From: Candidatus Marinacidobacterales bacterium
GTDB taxonomy: Bacteria > Acidobacteriota > Vicinamibacteria > Marinacidobacterales > SMYC01
Direction of reading: 5' to 3'
DNA length: 64,000 nt
Assembly (NCBI GenBank): GCA_965224085.1
Contig: CBDCYI010000005.1
Location: 160,001 to 224,000 of the forward strand
Shown: positions 3,696-26,214 of the stretch, in pieces
Layout of the letters: every line of letters begins with the position of its first letter
How positions within the stretch are numbered: position 1 is the first letter of the stretch
Translations under genes and position numbers: made by a program
The notes under the pieces: model-generated
The model's database searches: none
Seen by the model: only the letters and a program-made list of their open reading frames with translations
Told to the model about the DNA's origin: nothing

Positions 3696-4410
3696 TCAAT
3701 CCTTCCTTCTTGCTGTGAAGGCTATTCTTCCTTCGAGGAGTTTCTTGTTGCCGTAGGTTCGGCTCGTCTTTGCTTCGAAGCCTTTGACGTCGAGCTTTCT
3801 TAGCGCTTCGGCGCGACGACACAGCTCTACTTCGTGGACTTCGGTTTGACTGTCGGTAGGCTTTGCCTATTTTCCGGAAGGTTGTGATCTTTCTCCTCAG
3901 CAACCTGTGCCTCGAGTGGTCTTCGACCTCCATCATCAGAGCCCAGTCTTTGCCTTCGAAGTGGCGGCGCGCGCTCCAGCTCGGTCCGAGCTCCGGTAGA
4001 TCGAATAGGAAAAGGCCGCCTGGCCGGAGAGCGTCGTACACCCGTCCGAACAACGTATCGAGGTCTCGAGCGCTGTCGGAGCAGTAGCTCAGGACCTCGC
4101 CGATGGCGGTGACGGCGTCGCATTGAGGGAGCTCGGCTCGGTACAAAGACACAACGTGAAAAGGTGCCGAGGGGACGCGCCGGCGCGCGTACTCGATGAG
4201 CTTCGAAGAAACATCGAAGCCCACGACGTTGTAGCCGGCTTGCGCGAGCCCAGCTAAGAAGACGCCGGCACCGCAACCGAGATCCACGACGCCGCCGGAA
4301 TCGACACCGGCATCTCGCAGGATCGTGACCACGCCCATCGCAGCGTCGCTGGCGAAGCCGCCAAAGGCGACTTCCTGGATGTAGGCGAGGTCGGTACCGT
4401 AGTGGGTCAA
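3696..4410 (-). CDS. Class I SAM-dependent methyltransferase, frameshifted near 3845
   Basis: VVDLGCGAG and LRPGGLFLFD motifs; a natural-looking C-terminus (TEVHEVELCRR...RIAFTARRKD*) continues in another frame to the stop at 3696. Confidence 0.85.
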
Positions 4411-4598
4411 GCGTTCCAGATTTCTGCAAGCACCCGCTCGAAGTTGCCGCCCAAAACGAGCTCGATATCCCGATCGCTATAGCCGCGCCGGATGAGACCT
4501 TCCTTCAGATCGAAGACTCGCTTGGGGTGTGCGAGCGCGTCGGGTAGGAGCGGGAGGCTTTTCAGAAACTCGCGTCGGGTTCGCGATTTCGAGGTCAT
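4407..4598 (-). pseudogene. Internally deleted Tat-exported membrane dipeptidase (M19) mini-gene
   Basis: Tat motif TRREFLK fused in frame to HPKRVFDLKEGLIRRGYSDRDIELVLGGNFERV, the M19 C-terminus. Confidence 0.8.
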
Positions 4599-4680
4599 GG
4601 GACGAGATTGTCACCCAATTCGGGCCAGGAGCCAAGCCGATTCGATGGCAACGCGGGGCACGGGTTGATATCCTCATCGC

Positions 4681-7120
4681 GTGTTCTGTCGACGCACGGA
4701 CCCCGGAACTGCTCTCGCCTTCCTCTTCTTGCTCGTGACGCCAGCAATCGGCCAAGAAGCCCCGGAAACGCCCGCTCAACCGGAGGCAGCACCGGTCGCG
4801 ATCCCTTTGGCGGTTGTCGCGCCTCGGGCGGAGGAGCTCGCCGCCAACTTGCGCCGTATCGAAGCGCTCCTCGAACCGAGCGTTGAAGTGGCTGCCATCG
4901 AAGCCGTGGTGTCCGCGCAGGCCGACACCTTCGTCGAGCTTCGGCGTGAGCTCGATGACCTCGACTCCTCCGAGGTCTCGGTGCGCATGCTCGACGACCA
5001 TCGCCTGGCGTGGTCGGAGCAGGACGCGATGCTCGCGGACGGGCTGTCTAGGCTGCAGGAACGGTGGCAGAGTCTTACGCATGAAGGTGAAGAGCTCGAT
5101 GAGACGAAGCGTCGATGGATCGCGACGCGGGAGAGTGCGATCGCCGAGGACGCGCCCACGGAGATGCTCTCGCATATCGATACGCAGCTCGAGAGGATCG
5201 CTGAAGTAGAAGCGAAGCTAGAAGAACGAGGCGTGGCGGTGGCCGCTGTGCTCGCCCGCGTGTCGCGCAGCCGGGAGATTGCGCTCGAAGGCCTCGCGCG
5301 GCTCAGCGACTTCGCCAAAGATATCCGCCAGCGTTTGTGGATCCGGGACGCCCCACCGTTGTGGAAATGGACGGTCTCGACAGAAGGGAGCTCGCTTTCA
5401 GAAGAAGCCGAGAACGCGCACCGCTACTGGCTCGACACGCTCGTCCACTTCGTGAGCGCCCGGCAAGGACCATTCTTGTTTCTAGCCGCTCTCTTCCTCG
5501 GCTTTCTTCTCGTGGGCGAAGTCGCTAAGCGCCGCAGCAGCACTTGGCCCGCCGAGAACCATGAGCTCGACGCCGCGCGATTCGTTGTCTCGCGGCCCAT
5601 CTCGATGGCGGTCGCGTTCACTTTGGCTCTAATGGTTTTTGTTCTGAACAACCCGGCCGGGCCGATTTCCGACCTTATCGTGCTCGTCGCGATAGCACCT
5701 TTCATTCGTCTCGGGACGGGCCTTTTCGCTCCGATAGCCCACTCGGCGCTCTACAGCTTCGGAGTCCTATCGCTCCTGAATCGATTCTGGACGCTGACAC
5801 CGGATGGCTCGTTCCTGCGCCGGCTCTTGCACTTCGTCGTCACCGCGCTCGCCCTTGCCGTTGTCGGCTGGCTGATCGCGCGCTGGCGCTCGGCCGACGA
5901 GACGAAATCGAGTCGTTGGTGGTCGTTCGCCTGGATGCTTCTCGCGACAGCAGGCGTGACGCTCACTGTCTCCTTGATTGCTAACTTCCTCGGATGGACC
6001 AATCTTGCACTCGGGTTGACGGATAGCACGATCCAGGCCGGGTTTTCCGGGATCGCGTGGACGGTTGTTGTCCTGGCACTCAGAGCACTCGTGCCGGTCG
6101 TGGCACGGAGTCAGCTCGGGGTGACGCTACCGAGTCTTTCGCGACACAGCGAGATGTTCACGCGCGCTACGTTTAGAATCGCCGCCGCCTTGGCGTTTGT
6201 CTTCTGGACCCGAAGCGTGCTGCGCTTACTTTCAGCTCCTGGAGCCGGCCACGGAAAAACTTACGACGATGCTCACGGCGTCGGTGTCGTTTGGGGGCCT
6301 CGAAGTTTCGGCGGGTCGCGTGTTGGCGTCCATCTTCATTTTGGCGGCGACGTGGCTTCTGGGACGCACGGCGCGCTTCGTACTTCGTGAAGAGATTTTA
6401 CCCCGCGTACGCTTGCCGGAAGGTGCCGATCACTCGGTCGTCTCGATCATCAACTATCTGATCTGGGGCAGTGGGCTCGTTCTTTCGGCGGCGGCCGCGG
6501 GTCTGAGCGGCACCCAGCTCACCGTCGTCTTCGGCGCGCTCGGTGTCGGCATCGGATTCGGCCTCCAGTCGATCGTCAACAACTTTGTCTCCGGGCTCAT
6601 CTTGATTTTCGAGAGACCGATCAAGGTCGGGGACCGCGTCCAAACGGCCGACTATTTCGGTATCGTCACCGGCAACGGTATCCGGGCGAGTACGATCCGG
6701 ACATTCGATGGCGCGGATGTCGTCGTCCCCAACGGGGATCTCGTTGCCAAGGAGTTCGTGAATTGGACCCGCACCGACCGGACGCGACGAGCTGAGGTAC
6801 TCGTCCGTGTCGCGCTCGGTACCGACCCCAAGCAAGTGCTATCCATCTTACAACGCGTGGCGGAGCGGGAGAAGATTTTGGCAAACCCCAAGCCTACCGC
6901 CTTGATGACGGGTTTCGGCGAAAGCTCGCTCGATTTTCGTTTGCTGGTGTGGACGCGGATCGAAGACTACATGACGGTGGCGAGCGACCTGCACGTTGAA
7001 GTCAATGACGAGCTTAAGCGCGCCGGCATCCGCATCCCGATCCCGCAACGAGATCTTCACCTGCGTGCGGCCGACAGCGAAAAACTGGAGGATGTGGTCG
7101 CGGAACCGACGAAGAGCTAG
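4681..7120 (+). CDS. Large MscS-family (MscK-like) mechanosensitive channel, frameshifted near 6222
   Basis: Periplasmic coiled coil and multiple TMs in 4681..6220, then GALGVGIGFGLQSIVNNFVSGLILIFERPIKVGD and IPIPQRDLHL in the second frame. Confidence 0.88.
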
Positions 7121-7241
7121 CGCGGAAAGCTGCCTTGCGGACGCAAGCCATCCGGCCCGCGGCGGGAGCAAGGTCGCTTGGTGTACTGAGTGGTGGCAAT
7201 CTGAATCTTATCTGCTCAACGAAATATGACGTGGAACTAGA

Positions 7242-7568
7242 ATGGTCAGCATAGTCGTCTTCGTCACGATGCTCCTCGCCGTAACGGTCGCTTCGATTCG
7301 CTCGGCGCATTGGAGACGCCGTCTTCCCTTTGTCGGCGCGGCCGCCCTCGCGTTGGGAATAATGGTGTTCGCCTTTTTCGTTTTCGCGCCGAAGGACTAT
7401 CTCGTGCGGTGGCCTTCTCTATCCTCCTGGTTCCATCCTTTTCAGCTCGTCTGGTACTCCGGTCTTCTGTGCCTCTTCGGCGGCGGGATTCTCCTGGGCT
7501 CGGCGGTCAGGCGAGTGTTTCGACCGCATGGCAGCGTGCGTTCTCGCGACACAGAACTGAGAGGCTAG
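7242..7568 (+). CDS. Small membrane protein (about 3 TM)
   Basis: 108 aa hydrophobic ORF, convergent with the VWA gene. Confidence 0.6.
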   Translation: MVSIVVFVTMLLAVTVASIRSAHWRRRLPFVGAAALALGIMVFAFFVFAPKDYLVRWPSLSSWFHPFQLVWYSGLLCLFGGGILLGSAVRRVFRPHGSVRSRDTELRG

Positions 7569-20673: not shown

Positions 20674-21033
20674 TTATTCGCAGCTCGGCGAGACGTGCTT
20701 CAGGGAAGAGATGTTGATTCTGGGCTCGGGGCTGGCTTCGATCAGAAGCCCCTTGATGCGCACTTTGTGACCAAGATGTTTCGGGGCGCTAAACTCGTCG
20801 AGGGTACCTATCAGATGAAAACGCGCTTTGCCTTTGGCGGTGGGATCCAAGTTCTCGTCGATGTCTACCGCCGGGACGGGCTCGGTTGCGTCGGTGAGAA
20901 ACCATTTATCGTCTTCTTCTTGAACGAGGCAGCCCACGGTGCCCATGAGTTGCATGGGTTTGCTCTGGGGAAACGCTATCGCCGCTAAAGCTAGGAGCCC
21001 CAGAAGGACCAGAGCCCTCGAAATCAAAATCAA
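20674..21033 (-). CDS. Small secreted protein with two Cys
   Basis: Signal peptide; VGCL...PSCE; overlaps the PAL-like stop by 4 bp. Confidence 0.75.
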   Translation of the reverse strand: MILISRALVLLGLLALAAIAFPQSKPMQLMGTVGCLVQEEDDKWFLTDATEPVPAVDIDENLDPTAKGKARFHLIGTLDEFSAPKHLGHKVRIKGLLIEASPEPRINISSLKHVSPSCE

Positions 21034-22085
21034 TGCTCGTTCTCCGACGTCGTGCTCACCGGAACGAACTTTTGTAAGCGTTGTCCGTAAGTGTCGCCGA
21101 CATAGACAGCGCCTTTGGAGTCGACGGCCAGGCCGTGGGCCCAGTCGAACTCGCCGGGCCCGCGTCCTTGCGCGCCCCAGCGGGTGACAATCTTGCGGTC
21201 TCTCAGTGAGACTTTGAGGACCTGCTCCGATTCGTGCTCGGTCATGAACATGTGCTTTTCGTCGGGAGCGAGCGCGATGCCCCAGATATAGCCGAGGCCG
21301 TCGAGCTGGCCTTTGTAGTTGCCGTCGGTGTCGAACATCTGGACACGGTGGTTCTCGCGGTCGAGCACGTAGACTTTATCGTTCGAGTCCACGACGACCG
21401 CATGCGGCAAATGGAACTCGCCGGGCTTCGTGCTCGTATCCTCGGGACCACCGCCCCATTGTTTGATGAACTTGCCGTCGGGCGAATATTTTGCCACGCG
21501 GTTGTTGCCGTAGCCGTCGGCAATCAGAATCTCGCCTTTACTCGTGGTCGCGACATCCGCCGGGCGGTCGAGATGGGTCGCGTCGTAGCCCGCCTCGTCT
21601 TTCACGCCGATCTCGACGAGGACCCTCTTCATCTCGGGATCCATCTTGAGGATCCGATGCGCATCCTCATCGACGAGCCAAACGTTCCCATCACGGTCGA
21701 CTTTGATGAAGTGCGGCACGGTGCCCGTGACGCCAATGGCGCCCGAGCGGAGGTACTTGCCGTTCGCGTCGAACACGATGACGGGATGCTTGCCGCGATT
21801 AAAGACATAGATGTGGTCGTTCTCATCTATCGCGACGCCCGAAACGCCTGGCTGGAGATTGGGCGTCCGCGGCGGTGGCGTTTCACCTCTTGCTACCGCC
21901 TGTGCGCGCTTTTTCTCGCGCTCCGCCCGCATTTCAGCGCGAGCGTCCGGCATGGGGAAGTCCTGCGGGTGGCCGAGATACATCCCGTCTGGGATCGTCG
22001 GCCAGTTTTCGACGAGACGATACTCGGGCGCATCTTGGAGCCCGAGAAGCGCCAAAGAGCTCAGCATCAATATTAGTGTCTTCAT
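21030..22085 (-). CDS. Peptidyl-alpha-hydroxyglycine alpha-amidating lyase (PAL)-like NHL beta-propeller
   Basis: PHFIKVD, IADGYGNNRV, FHLPHAVVVD, LDRENHRVQ, WAHGLAVD; signal peptide MKTLILML. Confidence 0.85.
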   Translation of the reverse strand: MKTLILMLSSLALLGLQDAPEYRLVENWPTIPDGMYLGHPQDFPMPDARAEMRAEREKKRAQAVARGETPPPRTPNLQPGVSGVAIDENDHIYVFNRGKHPVIVFDANGKYLRSGAIGVTGTVPHFIKVDRDGNVWLVDEDAHRILKMDPEMKRVLVEIGVKDEAGYDATHLDRPADVATTSKGEILIADGYGNNRVAKYSPDGKFIKQWGGGPEDTSTKPGEFHLPHAVVVDSNDKVYVLDRENHRVQMFDTDGNYKGQLDGLGYIWGIALAPDEKHMFMTEHESEQVLKVSLRDRKIVTRWGAQGRGPGEFDWAHGLAVDSKGAVYVGDTYGQRLQKFVPVSTTSENEH

Positions 22086-22684
22086 CGTCTTTCGAACTCC
22101 TTCCGCCACCACGGATGTCCAAAATTGGTAAAAGGGCCGCCGTCGACGGAGATCTTGGTTTGGACCTTGAAATTGACGGGCGAGACCATCCGCGTCTGAT
22201 ATTGGAGTTGTACCGTGTGCCCATTCGCCGGAAACGGCGGCGTTTGATAATGGATGGTGTAGAAGCCGCCGAAATCGCCACCGATGGGCCCCGTCTTGAG
22301 GATCTCGAAACCTCGGCTATCCTTTTCGAGGCGGACGAAAATCTTCTGCTCCTTCTCGTAGACGATGGTCGCGTCCACGGTGAAGGGACCGTCCGGGCCT
22401 ACCGCTTCGATCTTGCTCGTGTAATAGCGGCCGTCCTCGCTCGGTGCGAAGACTTCTGTGCCCTTGATGGTCCCCGCGGCGCCGAGTGGGCTTTCGGGAA
22501 CGCGCCACTCGAAATCCCATTTGCCGGGGAAGTAGATGTCATAGTCGAAGAGCGGAACTTCGTCGTCCTTTTCGGTAGGCCGGCCGTGATCCGGAATCTG
22601 TCCCTTGGGAAGATCCGGCTTTTCCTGCTGCGGGTGCGCGACGCTCAGAGCGAGCGCGACGACCCAGATGCAAACCTGAAACAT
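22082..22684 (-). CDS. Secreted hypothetical beta-rich protein
   Basis: Signal peptide; 200 aa; tightly coupled to neighbours. Confidence 0.8.
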   Translation of the reverse strand: MFQVCIWVVALALSVAHPQQEKPDLPKGQIPDHGRPTEKDDEVPLFDYDIYFPGKWDFEWRVPESPLGAAGTIKGTEVFAPSEDGRYYTSKIEAVGPDGPFTVDATIVYEKEQKIFVRLEKDSRGFEILKTGPIGGDFGGFYTIHYQTPPFPANGHTVQLQYQTRMVSPVNFKVQTKISVDGGPFTNFGHPWWRKEFERR

Positions 22685-22690
22685 TGCAGG

Positions 22691-24139
22691 CTATTGATTG
22701 TCGTTGTCGGTTGCCGTGTCGAGCTTGGTGAGATCCTGGCTGTCGATCGTGTACTCGGTGAATGCCTGGTACATCTCGTCCCAGCTCTGCTCGCCCCAGT
22801 AGACCTCGAGCTGCGGTCCCGGATTCCAGCGATTGTAGAGCGAGTTGTCGTAGACCCCGATCGCCGTAATCTTGCTGCCCGCCGTGATTTTCAAGGGTTC
22901 GACGAGCTCGTAGTGAATCTGCCAGTTGAAGTCGAACTCCGGAACGTCGAGGATGATGTCTTCCCGTCCGTCGGGCCAGGTAACGATCCACTTCAAGCTC
23001 TTGCCGCGCAAGTGCATGTGCGGCGACAAGCCATAGAGCGTGATGTCCTCGGTGACGGGCGTGATGCCGGTGATCTTCCAATCTTCCGCGTATGCCGGAA
23101 TCGTCGGGATCTTCGGGCGCACGGGCTTGCCGTTCTCGTCGGTCGTGGAGACGATCTCTTCACCGTTCACGATATAGATGTCGTGGCCGAAAGGGTCGGT
23201 CGGGACCGGGTTGCCGCCTTGGCGCGTCAACACTTCGTGTGTCACGGGCTTCGTGTTGAACCATACGCCGAGCTTCGAGCGATCCGTCTCGGGCTTGCCG
23301 GTGGGGTTGTAGTGCATCGTGAAGCGGACATATTTGCCGGCTGTGATGCGCTTGCCGGTCCCGGGGCGATGGCTCTCGACGCCACGTCCCGGCACGAAGG
23401 AGAGGAGCTTGCTCGTACCCTTTAGGTTGAACTGGTTGAAGACTGCTTGCTGGATACGATTCTCGGCATCTTCCGATTTGCGCTCGCGCTCGCGCTTGTT
23501 GGCCTCGCTGCGCGTGAGAGGCTCGCCCTCGAGCGTGACGAGCTTGCCTTCGACCACTTTCGTATCGGGCGGCAAGTCGACGACATAGGCGCCCGCGTGG
23601 TGAACGATTGCGGGGTTACTTGGACGCAGCTCCAGGATCTCCGCGAAGCGATCGACGACCCACGGGACCTTGACGTAGAAATCGAGATACTCTTCTTCAC
23701 CTTCCGCCGGGATCTCGCACTCGACCGGTAACTCGAACACGAAATCGGGGACGCGTCCTACCGTCCACCCGTTGGAGAACTCGGGCATGCTCGGAGGCTC
23801 GCCGTCGCCTCGCGGCGCGCCACCATCGGCCCAAGCGGCGATGATGCCGATCTCCTCCTCGGTGAGCCGGCGCTCGTTACGCATCGGGAAGGAGTGAGCC
23901 GGATCGGCCAGCCACGGGGGCATTTCACCGGTTTCGGTGGTCGATTTGATGGCCTGGGCCCACGGGCGTACTTCCTTATAGTCGCGCAGCGGCATCGGCC
24001 CAATCTCGCCAGGGCGGTGACAGCTCACACAATTCTCGTAGAGAATCGGCGCAACATCTTTGGTGAAGGTGGGGGTCTCCGCCGCCGCCATGGCGGACGC
24101 GAGAACCAACACTATCAGTAAGAACGAGAGGCGTTTCAT
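22691..24139 (-). CDS. Cytochrome c-fused copper type II (PHM/DBH-like) monooxygenase
   Basis: Signal peptide; CVSCH heme site; IVHHA, TMHY, PHMH, DEM copper-ligand motifs. Confidence 0.87.
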   Translation of the reverse strand: MKRLSFLLIVLVLASAMAAAETPTFTKDVAPILYENCVSCHRPGEIGPMPLRDYKEVRPWAQAIKSTTETGEMPPWLADPAHSFPMRNERRLTEEEIGIIAAWADGGAPRGDGEPPSMPEFSNGWTVGRVPDFVFELPVECEIPAEGEEEYLDFYVKVPWVVDRFAEILELRPSNPAIVHHAGAYVVDLPPDTKVVEGKLVTLEGEPLTRSEANKRERERKSEDAENRIQQAVFNQFNLKGTSKLLSFVPGRGVESHRPGTGKRITAGKYVRFTMHYNPTGKPETDRSKLGVWFNTKPVTHEVLTRQGGNPVPTDPFGHDIYIVNGEEIVSTTDENGKPVRPKIPTIPAYAEDWKITGITPVTEDITLYGLSPHMHLRGKSLKWIVTWPDGREDIILDVPEFDFNWQIHYELVEPLKITAGSKITAIGVYDNSLYNRWNPGPQLEVYWGEQSWDEMYQAFTEYTIDSQDLTKLDTATDNDNQ

Positions 24140-24217
24140 CGGCTAGCCCTCCGAGATCAGTGCAATCTACGGGCTGACCGTGGAGATGTCAATTGGGGCC
24201 TAGTATCATTCCAGTGC

Positions 24218-25369
24218 TTGCCGATGACCTTTTTTCAGCATCCTGCTAGTACGAAGGGGGCCGTGCGCGTCATCCTCAGTGTCAGTTTTTTGCTCGCAAG
24301 CTTTTGCGGCTCGAGCGCCTTGGCGCATGATTTGGAGTTCACCTACACCATTGTCCTGCTGCGGGCCGACGGTAAATTCCAAGTGGATGTCACCTGCGAT
24401 CTCGACGCGCTCGCTCTCGGCGTCGCGCCGGGGGTCGACTCGGAGCAAGCGGTGCGGCGGCTGCGTGCCCTCCCAGTCGGAGAGCTCGAGCGCCGGGTCG
24501 AGCAAGTTCGCGATCGACTCGCGGACCTGGTGACGGTGAGCTTCGACGGTGTCGCGATGTCGATCCGCCCGCGTCTTCCGGATTACGGCCACAGCGAGGA
24601 AGCCCCCATCCCGACCATCCTCGGGCTGACCGCACGTTTCCGAGGTGCGATCCCGCCGGATGCCGAACGGATCGGGCTTCGCGTCGACCGTTTGTTCCCG
24701 CCGGTCTATCTGACGGTCATGGACGAAGCGGCGGATATCGTCGCGCACCAAGTCCTGACGCGTGGCGACGACAGCGATCCTTTTGCGCTGATCCCGAGCT
24801 CGAGAACGCCACCATCTAGGCTCACGGTCGCCCGGCGCTATTTTCGCCTCGGGATCTGGCACATCGTCCCCGAAGGCCTCGACCACATCTTGTTTGTTTT
24901 GGGCTTGTTTCTTTTGAGCACGCGGCTGCGTCCGCTGCTCATTCAAGTCACCGCGTTCACCGTCGCGCATACGGCAACGCTGGCCCTCTCGGCGTATGGC
25001 ATCGTGCGCTTGCCGCCCTCGGTGGTCGAGCCACTCATCGCTTTTTCCATCGCTTATGTTGCCATCGAGAACCTCGTAACGCGCGAGCTCAAGCCGTGGC
25101 GTCCCCTTGTCGTGTTTCTTTTTGGGCTTTTGCACGGAATGGGCTTCGCCGGGTTTCTCGGGGAGCTCGGCATCCCCGAGCAACAATTCCTCACCGCGCT
25201 CGTGAGCTTCAACCTCGGTGTAGAAGCCGGCCAACTCAGTGTTGTCACCGCCGCGTTCTTGACGATTGGCTGGTTTCACGACAAGTCGTGGTATCGCGCG
25301 CGAGTGACGATCCCGCTTTCGCTCGGGATCGCGGCGATGGGCCTATACTGGGCAGCCACGAGGCTATGA
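24218..25369 (+). CDS. HupE/UreJ family membrane protein (start uncertain)
   Basis: ALAH; GIWHIVPEGLDHILF, TAFTVAHT, FGLLHGMGFAG, FNLGVEAGQ. Confidence 0.88.
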   Translation: MPMTFFQHPASTKGAVRVILSVSFLLASFCGSSALAHDLEFTYTIVLLRADGKFQVDVTCDLDALALGVAPGVDSEQAVRRLRALPVGELERRVEQVRDRLADLVTVSFDGVAMSIRPRLPDYGHSEEAPIPTILGLTARFRGAIPPDAERIGLRVDRLFPPVYLTVMDEAADIVAHQVLTRGDDSDPFALIPSSRTPPSRLTVARRYFRLGIWHIVPEGLDHILFVLGLFLLSTRLRPLLIQVTAFTVAHTATLALSAYGIVRLPPSVVEPLIAFSIAYVAIENLVTRELKPWRPLVVFLFGLLHGMGFAGFLGELGIPEQQFLTALVSFNLGVEAGQLSVVTAAFLTIGWFHDKSWYRARVTIPLSLGIAAMGLYWAATRL

Positions 25370-26214
25370 GCTACCGCGAGCTGACGCCGTCTGGATTTGG
25401 CTGGGAGCTATCCGAGCTCGATCCGGCGCGAGCGATGGAGGCGTTCCACAGCTCGGGCGGATTCATCTTGATTCGCAACCAGCAAAGGTTGGAGCCGAGA
25501 GAGCTCATGAACGTTGCGACCCTTTTCGGCGAGCTCGAGCTCAACGAGAAATACGACCCGAATTTCCTGCTCCCGGATCATCCGGAGATTCTTCGCCTCG
25601 GTAATCTTCGGGAGAACGGCAAGTATCGCTCCCTCTTCGTCCAAGCCGACCCGCCGCCGCTCCTGTGGCACACGGACGATTCTTTTCGCATCCCACAGCC
25701 ACTCGGATCTTGTCTCTTGTGCGTGAAGACGCCGCCGTCGGGCGGCGAAACGGGCTTCGCGGGCATGGCGGCTGCCTATGACGCGCTGCCGGAAGCAACG
25801 AAGCGCCGCATCGACGGCCTCACGACGACGCACTCCTATCATTATTTAAACGAGATCCTGAGGCGCCGGAACCCGCACCGGCAGCCTTTGAGCGAGGAGC
25901 TCCGGGCGAATCACCCGCCGGTCGAGCGGCCCTTGGTCGCGCGCCATCCGGTGACGGGTCGCAAGTCCCTGTATCTTCCGAAGTGTCACATCGAGTCGAT
26001 CCACGGCCTCTCGCCCGAGGAGGCCGAGTCACTTCTGAGCGAGCTTCTGGAGCACGCGACGGGAGAGGATTTCGCCTTTATGCATCGCTGGGCGCCTGGG
26101 GATATTGTCGTGTGGGACAACCGCTCGGTCTTACACGCGCCATCGCCATTCGACGACACGCGCTACGATCGTCTGCTTTATAGCCTTACGATGAAAGGCG
26201 AACAAGTCTCGTGA
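25366..26214 (+). CDS. TauD/TfdA Fe(II)/2-oxoglutarate dioxygenase
   Basis: WHTDDS, GGETGFA, HPVTGRKSLY, WDNRSVLH; ATGA overlap with the HupE gene. Confidence 0.9.
   Translation: MSYRELTPSGFGWELSELDPARAMEAFHSSGGFILIRNQQRLEPRELMNVATLFGELELNEKYDPNFLLPDHPEILRLGNLRENGKYRSLFVQADPPPLLWHTDDSFRIPQPLGSCLLCVKTPPSGGETGFAGMAAAYDALPEATKRRIDGLTTTHSYHYLNEILRRRNPHRQPLSEELRANHPPVERPLVARHPVTGRKSLYLPKCHIESIHGLSPEEAESLLSELLEHATGEDFAFMHRWAPGDIVVWDNRSVLHAPSPFDDTRYDRLLYSLTMKGEQVS

Follow-up and report, generated by a model that had tools for sequence, protein, structure and literature searches.

A predicted haem c-fused copper monooxygenase and a PAL-type propeller encoded together in an acidobacterial gene cluster

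PHM-type copper monooxygenases are textbook ascorbate-dependent enzymes of animals, where PHM and PAL make up the two halves of PAM. Here we describe a bacterial gene cluster whose products resemble both halves. It consists of four genes, which we call A to D, on the minus strand (20674-24139) of a 64,000-nucleotide stretch of DNA from a Candidatus Marinacidobacterales bacterium (Acidobacteriota, Vicinamibacteria; GenBank assembly GCA_965224085.1, contig CBDCYI010000005.1, positions 160,001 to 224,000), hereafter the window. As judged from sequence comparison and a structural model, gene A is predicted to encode an exported c-type cytochrome fused to a two-copper core of the PHM/DBH type, and gene C a PAL-type propeller. 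We see an even chance that the two form a periplasmic, haem-driven pair of hydroxylase and lyase carrying out a two-step oxidative N-C cleavage as in animal PAM.

PAL-like enzymes have been described from bacteria. Passages of one report, citing a patent and an Exiguobacterium PAL, list several bacterial proteins with experimentally identified PAL-like activity; they call the natural role of these homologues unclear and describe their present use as biocatalysts (PMC10900485). The Exiguobacterium enzyme, according to a section of a second paper, cleaves in vitro peptides that were hydroxylated by rat PHM (PMC9155641). Oxidative N-C cleavage via a hydroxylated intermediate, the feature that the products of A and C would share, is also known from MdgH/MdgL in methylguanidine demethylation and from MicC and MovX, but in the passages that treat them these are cytoplasmic Fe/2-oxoglutarate or multinuclear iron enzymes without homology to A or C (PMC12508155, PMC12912966). 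In one such passage PAL is the only comparable dedicated lyase known to the MdgL authors (PMC12508155), and parts of the other paper ascribe bacterial amidation to unrelated iron enzymes (PMC12912966). Bacterial homologues go unmentioned in the passages found in a review of PAM (PMC6529398) and in one of PHM (PMC12164859). A search of the full-text literature, with subscription journals, patents and supplementary files outside its reach, turned up no account of this cluster or of a bacterial PHM-like enzyme with a fused haem.

A branch in bacteria that carries its own cytochrome c would reveal a different electron feed to the uncoupled copper pair, and a conserved pairing of A with C gives a concrete, testable hypothesis for the role of bacterial PAL homologues. 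If true, it would provide peptide chemistry with a fully bacterial, ascorbate-free amidation system; the pairing also bears on the origin of PAM.

Products of the operon compared with PHM, DBH and PAL

The four open reading frames (ORFs) follow one another closely on the minus strand: A at 22691-24139 (482 aa), B at 22082-22684 (200 aa), C at 21030-22112 (360 aa) and D at 20674-21033 (119 aa). Six nucleotides separate the TAG stop of A from the ATG of B. The TGA of B overlaps an ATG of C (ATGA) that is preceded, 11 nt upstream, by AAGGAG, so that C probably starts at 22085 (MKTLILMLSS...), and the TTG start of D is in turn overlapped by the TGA of C. Genes A to D are translationally coupled, as the original prediction had proposed, with the tight junctions read directly from the DNA; its further statement that all four carry signal peptides agrees with the N-termini of A, B, C and D, which are signal-peptide-like on inspection of the translations by eye. 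No terminator-like site was found on the minus strand within the operon.

The predicted A protein is a mono-haem cytochrome c joined to a PHM/DBH-fold monooxygenase core. Its cytochrome domain (residues 21-120; 23780..24079) contains CVSCH at 24017-24031 and an axial Met in the motif MPPW, and its two-domain copper core (residues 124-471; 22727..23770) holds the CuH-type ligands H180, H181 and H276 and the CuM-type ligands H374, H376 and M456. In an alignment of 50 diverse family members there is no variation at C37, C40 and H41 of the CxxCH motif, M73 of MPPW, H180, H276, H374 or H376, while H181 and M456 show a conservation of at least 90%; an Arg that follows the second CuM His (R378) is invariant family-wide. 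The combination of CVSCH with the full set of PHM copper ligands that had been noticed in A is thus confirmed, all six ligand positions being conserved among these members. The haem domain shows the features of a class I-type c cytochrome, with both CxxCH and the distal Met present and invariant, at Pfam scores under the cut-off: Cytochrome_CBB3 reaches a sub-threshold 19.1 bits on the full protein and 24.4 bits (E 3.7e-5; cut-off 27) on the cytochrome domain alone. A profile of the A family also matches hydrazine synthase alpha, in its haem region, and PDB entry 4rlr, and an NCBIfam search with A gave no match.

The structural model places the copper core with PHM and DBH. Modelled by AlphaFold on the 50-sequence alignment, A reached a pLDDT of 89.1 and a pTM of 0.87, and in a Foldseek search of the PDB with this model ranks 1-31 were occupied entirely by rat PHM and human DBH (E 1e-12 to 6e-9). 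In VIA-align, DBH reached a Z score of 21.2 and 25 PHM entries scored 15.7-20.7; PNGase F, the fold that came next, had a Z of 8.2. Residues 124-471 of the model superpose on residues 46-330 of PHM with a root-mean-square deviation of about 3-4 Å over 239-276 residues. By sequence, the family profile detects DBH at 5.3e-9 and PHM at 5.6e-8, and its alignment with PHM sets 'vvHHv' against 'tvHHm', 'qmHY' against 'qvHY' and 'pHmHlRGk' against 'vHTHHLGk'. The structural alignment with rat PHM that had been suggested as a check consequently supports the assignment at the level of fold, with the HH, HY and HxH motifs aligned by profile. We take the CuH ligands of PHM to be H107, H108 and H172 and the His ligands of CuM to be H242 and H244, a numbering in agreement with the mutant names in PDB titles; M456 of A is the equivalent of PHM M314 by its place in the fold-level match, not by residue-level alignment.

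The likeness of A to PHM and DBH therefore extends to two beta-sandwich domains, to the 3-His and 2-His-plus-Met sites and to an extracytoplasmic location, at an identity of only 13-17%. A differs from DBH in having an N-terminal c-type haem domain where DBH has the stretch ahead of its catalytic core (chain residues before ~181). Whereas the PHM/DBH family relies on ascorbate, A carries a fused haem c, and the fusion suggests that haem c takes the place of ascorbate as electron donor.

Several sequence searches speak against this assignment of A: Pfam Cu2_monoox_C (PF03712) scores 17.6 bits on it against a cut-off of 23, Pfam gives no PF01082 match, and phmmer with A alone against solved structures finds no relative (best E 0.8). 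In its favour, two paralogues of A in the same genome pass Pfam Cu2_monoox_C, at 28.9 and 24.1 bits. The family as a whole is large. Among 8000 candidates scored, 4257 proteins belong to it at E <=0.001, and they are labelled 'cytochrome c' or 'hypothetical'; an exhaustive search returned 15,427 representative clusters (50% identity) at E <=0.001, with 1942 at E <=1e-30. A fusion of A with B was sought in two long A homologues (P0127 and P0155, two of many long forms) and found in neither.

Gene C is predicted to encode a six-bladed NHL propeller with the active-site set of PAL. Pfam NHL matches it at 5.8e-34, and the best of its 52 solved matches is rat PAL (the PAL domain of PAM, 3fvz; 5.8e-37), in one 240-residue alignment covering residues 111-350. 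The putative zinc triad H134, H237 and H326 aligns with PAL H585, H690 and H786, Y201 with Y654 and R252 with R706 (PAL residues counted along chain 5wm0_A), and R106 aligns with R533. All six are invariant in 28 C-family sequences, including a paralogue elsewhere in the genome, which upholds the earlier recognition of PAL zinc and catalytic motifs (PH, DGY, PH, DREN, AH) in this gene. We take the zinc-binding and catalytic roles of these PAL residues to be those given in the PAL structure paper. What distinguishes PAL is that His occupies the 'P-H' position of blades 2, 4 and 6 and of no other blade, and C shows exactly this arrangement. 'DREN' is a generic NHL consensus that aligns in the fly Thin protein too.

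C differs from rat PAL in being a free-standing secreted protein that is not fused to a hydroxylase, and it has Trp at the position of PAL M784 and Gly at that of D787. The latter residue is presumably a calcium ligand, the other calcium ligands presumably being backbone atoms, and its replacement means that the structural calcium site of PAL is not reproduced in C at this position, a point against a strict equivalence. The automatic JGI labels of C homologues include some as peptidylamidoglycolate lyase, most being YncE or 6-bladed propeller.

Gene B is predicted to encode a secreted ten-stranded beta-barrel of the nitrobindin/DUF1579 type. Pfam DUF1579 scores 17.4 bits on it (E 0.0043; cut-off 25.2), its nearest Atlas clusters carry DUF1579 or THAP4-like barrel labels, and a model with a pLDDT of 84.6 retrieves OssO/OlmO, nitrobindin and THAP4 in Foldseek (E 9e-7 to 3e-4, TM score 0.68-0.75 on the target). 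The predicted ten-stranded barrel of B resembles the nitrobindin/THAP4 haem barrel and the OssO/OlmO spirocyclases, but B is secreted, lacks a conserved haem-ligating His and has no conserved Cys or Met. Given these fold matches and the absence of any invariant His, Cys or Met among 18 homologues, B is probably a ligand-binding-type barrel and neither a haem nor a copper protein.

The product of gene D is small and secreted and keeps one Cys close to either terminus; no Pfam family was found for it even at E 5, and its Atlas matches are all unnamed acidobacterial clusters. Across 26 aligned sequences there are a conserved N-terminal GC, AT(D/E)P, LIG..EF and a Cys as second-last residue, and no conserved His or Met. 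The suggestion that B and D might act as copper carriers was rejected, considering that copper motifs built from His, Met or paired Cys are not conserved in the 18 B and 26 D homologues. It had also been remarked that neither protein ends in Gly, and this is correct: B ends in R and D in Cys followed by a variable final residue (E, A, P, V or T), which rules out D as a Gly-extended substrate.

Linkage of genes A and C

Surveys of gene neighbourhoods were started from either gene, and neighbours were clustered from gene calls scored by codon usage on this GC-rich DNA. The C-centred survey took in the best 80 of 414 metagenome loci, many of them on contigs of only 2-5 kb; A was present in 34 of these, B in 47, D in 41, and a HupE/UreJ_2-type permease gene, which lies divergent from A in the window, in 31. 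Among the 12 loci where C has at least 4 kb on both sides, A, B and D were each found in 11 (A at >=40% identity in 10) and the permease gene in 10. The sole well-flanked locus without A is the closest relative (L094, with a C 91% identical). At L094:6833-8439, which corresponds to G004:C13:38417-39493, A is gone, the last 45 residues of B are left, and C is interrupted by a single in-frame TAG, at the codon that corresponds to E224; the module is decaying in this relative.

The order of the genes is far from fixed. The 37 loci that have both C and an A of at least 40% identity fall into ten patterns of order and strand, with a median gap between A and C of 1450 bp and a maximum of 4031 bp. 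Most frequent are the arrangements B- C+ HupE- D+ A+ (the soil type) and A+ B+ C+ D+ (the window type), and A and the permease gene are divergent neighbours in both. Recurrent neighbours of the cluster are genes for an amidohydrolase, an ROK kinase, a small cytochrome c and a pyrroloquinoline quinone (PQQ) dehydrogenase.

Whole genomes give a concordant result from the side of C. In a survey of 41 relatives (C orthologue at E <=1e-60, A orthologue at E <=1e-120), C was found in G000, the genome of the window, in G007 and in G004, and A, adjoining C in both cases, in G000 and G007; G004 has the C gene with the in-frame TAG and no A, and the other 38 have neither gene. An even sample of 200 genomes from the phylum, searched for the C subfamily at E <=1e-70, contains C in 4 genomes, all of which have a gene of the C-linked clade of A (clade A). 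Clade A occurs in 7 genomes, C without A in none, and 193 have neither. The chance that all 4 C genomes fall among the 7 A genomes is 35 in 64,684,950, a figure that overstates the case because three of the four come from one family. In these samples an intact C of this subfamily occurs in six genomes, each of which also has a clade-A gene.

The view from A is another one, and it weighs against a joint function. The A-centred survey, made of the best 80 of 593 genome loci found with a 12-sequence A alignment (tblastn, E <=1e-5), contains B in 25 loci, D in 16 and a C-like (PAL-like) gene in 5; the regular partner of A is B, and whole clades show A-B, A-A-B or A alone. Sets of A-B(-D) without C occur at L013-L015, in the A-A-B loci of Blastocatellia and in a second copy in the genome of the window. 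Two genomes (G056 and G090) have a clade-A gene and no PAL-like match genome-wide at E <=1e-25. In a locus check that covered G172, G148 and G136 (the last too fragmented to judge), the full cluster was found only in G225 and G007: in G172 C and the permease gene are on one contig and A-B-D on another, and in G148, a one-contig genome, C lies 5.7 kb from a permease gene, with every clade-A gene hundreds of kb away.

These observations suit an explanation in which two separate modules share a neighbourhood. A, B and D would then form a haem-fed copper hydroxylase that is sufficient by itself and works on a non-glycine substrate, hydroxylating C-H in a small molecule in the manner of DBH while B holds that molecule. 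C plus the permease would be an unrelated propeller enzyme using zinc or another metal, and the two modules would often be clustered through shared regulation or metal supply and not through a common substrate. The 75 of the 80 A-centred loci that lack C agree with it, as does the copy on contig C11 of the window's own genome, the separation of C plus permease from A-B-D in G172 and G148, the two genomes with A and no PAL-like gene, the equally good match of the A fold to DBH and PHM, and the loss from A of what we take to be the carboxylate contacts of PHM (R240 and Y318, discussed below). We nevertheless think it rather unlikely, since it leaves unexplained why a clade-A gene accompanies intact C in six of six genomes, why C has acquired an in-frame stop where A is deleted, and why the two genes stay within 4 kb of each other through ten gene orders; moreover, enzymes with the PAL active-site set are known only to cleave what a hydroxylase has produced.

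Returning to a functional pairing of A and C, surveys started from A dilute the link because A belongs to a huge paralogue family, whereas those started from C find A almost every time. The link is real but one-sided, C seeming to depend on A and not the reverse, and the cluster is composed of two sub-modules, A+B+D and C+permease, that are usually joined. The co-occurrence of PHM-like and NHL genes put forward in the original prediction is accordingly borne out from the side of C (11 of 12 loci, six of six genomes) and not from that of A (5 of 80 loci). Its proposal that a PHM plus PAL operon forms an amidation pathway is supported in part: the homology to both PAM halves and the dependent linkage stand, and the coupling is looser than that of genes bound in one operon.

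Candidate chemistry and substrate

Together with the divergent permease gene, the operon would represent a conserved periplasmic module of Vicinamibacteria-type Acidobacteriota. From the observed folds, ligand sets, gene coupling and co-occurrence we infer its catalytic steps, electron path and substrate as follows. The c-type haem of A would receive electrons, the probable source being respiratory-chain cytochromes of the periplasm, and would feed the uncoupled copper pair of the PHM type, where O2 would be activated. A would then hydroxylate a carbon adjoining an amide nitrogen; in the simplest case this would be the alpha-carbon of a glycine-type end. In the second step the putative zinc lyase C would split the carbinolamide into an amide and glyoxylate or a similar aldehyde. 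B and D, as partners of A, probably hold or present the substrate, and the permease probably supplies metal. C would be a dependent accessory lyase, and A could work without it. The carbinolamide of a peptidyl-hydroxyglycine can break down unaided at alkaline pH, so that the lyase would be a dispensable accelerator, and a lyase without its hydroxylase would have no substrate; a one-sided link between A and C is what PAM chemistry predicts.

The predicted pocket of A tells against a substrate held exactly as in PHM. We take R240, N316 and Y318 to be the PHM residues that grip peptidyl-glycine, with R240 and Y318 as the contacts to its carboxylate. According to the profile alignment and the spacing from M456, R240 corresponds to S372 of A and Y318 to F460, so neither carboxylate contact is conserved. 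N316 corresponds to Q458, the sole similar residue of the three; Gln has a frequency of 96% at this position in the C-linked clade, and A paralogues unlinked to C have Ile or Asn. The C-linked clade has conserved residues of its own (R252, R264, K269, Y270 and Y457) and an insertion of ~40 residues around 305-345, which, with R378 and the barrel partner B, further set A apart from PHM. In terms of its residues, A thus appears to lack the strict glycine-holding set of PHM (EC 1.14.17.3). Also counting against a PAM-like reading, the cluster contains no gene for a Gly-ended precursor peptide.

Both PAM halves are represented in the operon and exported, and the Exiguobacterium PAL accepts peptide substrates (a section of PMC9155641), as would be expected if the module were devoted to biosynthetic amidation, maturing a secreted Gly-extended peptide, whether a signal peptide or one resembling a RiPP (a peptide made by the ribosome and modified after translation), to its C-terminal amide. 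We consider this quite improbable, considering that no Gly-ended product is encoded in or beside the conserved cluster, that RiPP-type maturases are not among the recurrent neighbours, that the PHM carboxylate contacts are lost in A, and that the known bacterial peptide amidation described in passages of one paper uses alpha-ketoglutarate and multinuclear non-haem iron (MNIO) enzymes (PMC12912966). The hydrophobic-type barrel of B and the lack of a Gly-ended precursor gene lead us to guess that a small N-acylglycine-like or peptide-breakdown substrate is likelier than a hormone-style maturation.

Taken to its full extent, the proposal of a haem-driven hydroxylase acting with a lyase would mean that bacteria own a complete, ascorbate-independent PAM, in which a copper pair supplied by a haem c, itself fed from the respiratory chain, alpha-hydroxylates glycine-terminated amides in the periplasm and a PAL-type lyase releases the amide and glyoxylate. 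Such a system would be the natural context of bacterial PAL homologues and the stock for at least the PAL half of eukaryotic PAM, and the haem-fused family, with its 15,427 clusters, would constitute a class of periplasmic C-H oxidising enzymes. In this extended form we hold the proposal to be doubtful.

The permease, neighbouring genes and further copies of the core

The permease gene (24218..25369, plus strand) starts 78 bp from A and runs divergently; its product is of the HupE/UreJ_2 type (PF13795, 168.4 bits against a cut-off of 24.5, E 1.3e-49) and has an N-terminal periplasmic domain of ~170 residues, for which no Pfam family was found even at E 5. Clustering finds a homologue in 56 of the 88 C-centred sources, and the permease, which the original prediction had omitted, belongs to the conserved module. 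After signal cleavage the N-terminal domain (24326-24832) would start with a His (AH-D/E-LE) that is conserved in the homologues at L018, L021 and L022 and recalls amino-terminal-His copper sites. We speculate that the permease serves in the supply of copper or zinc.

A metal-permease family gene as a constant member, the conserved His at the start of the mature permease and a small cytochrome c gene that recurs upstream in soil-type clusters could also indicate that the whole module is concerned with metal handling or electron transfer only, in copper uptake, detoxification or respiration and with no organic substrate. This seems to us highly improbable. A PHM fold carrying a 3-His and a 2-His-plus-Met site is the hallmark of monooxygenases that activate O2, B and D are devoid of conserved copper motifs made of His, Met or Cys pairs, and a PAL-type zinc lyase would be left unexplained.

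The small cytochrome c gene of the soil-type clusters encodes a mono-haem protein (Pfam 4.8e-11) and is found at L017:3106-3552 and in 7 other soil-type loci, just upstream of B/C and accompanied by the amidohydrolase and ROK kinase genes. Its product is a possible electron donor to the haem of A; the gene is absent from the window. Seven Blastocatellia loci (L025, L026, L029, L031, L032, L034 and L045) have tandem A paralogues followed by B and a PQQ-propeller dehydrogenase with a cytochrome c domain of its own, an arrangement that looks like a different use of the hydroxylase-barrel pair. Such a dehydrogenase gene is present in 13 A-centred loci.

Two further copies of parts of the core are present in the genome of the window. 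One is a D-A-B set on the minus strand at ~4767-7115 of L010 (G000:C11:1530000-1541000), with A 53%, B 58% and D 44% identical to the genes described here and with neither a PAL-like gene nor a permease gene. The other is a more distant pair on the plus strand of L009 (G000:C9), where a PAL-like NHL gene (4320-5324; 41% identical and retaining the PAL residues) is located 1 kb upstream of an A-like gene (6312-7535; 34% identical) whose product passes Pfam Cu2_monoox_C; this pair, too, counts in favour of a link between A and C. A small ORF on the opposite strand lies between the two, and an ORF of 194 aa then follows.

Downstream of the permease gene in the window, its stop overlaps the ATG (ATGA) of a gene for a TauD/TfdA-family Fe/2-oxoglutarate dioxygenase (25366-26214, plus strand; Pfam 2.3e-54). 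This coupling is specific to the window, no homologue being found in the other 87 C-centred sources or in the 80 A-centred loci. The stretch occurs in DNA-type sequencing runs of 5 studies, and no RNA run was listed for the operon. The base composition around the operon gives no island signal, and scans of the window with Rfam (gathering thresholds) and for tRNA genes returned no matches. Three promoter-type matches were found, against 1.2 expected in shuffles, and one of them, a sigma-70-like TTGACA-17-TAGATT on the minus strand (24164..24192; 10 of 12 positions, a consensus match only), lies upstream of A within the 78-bp spacer that separates it from the permease gene.

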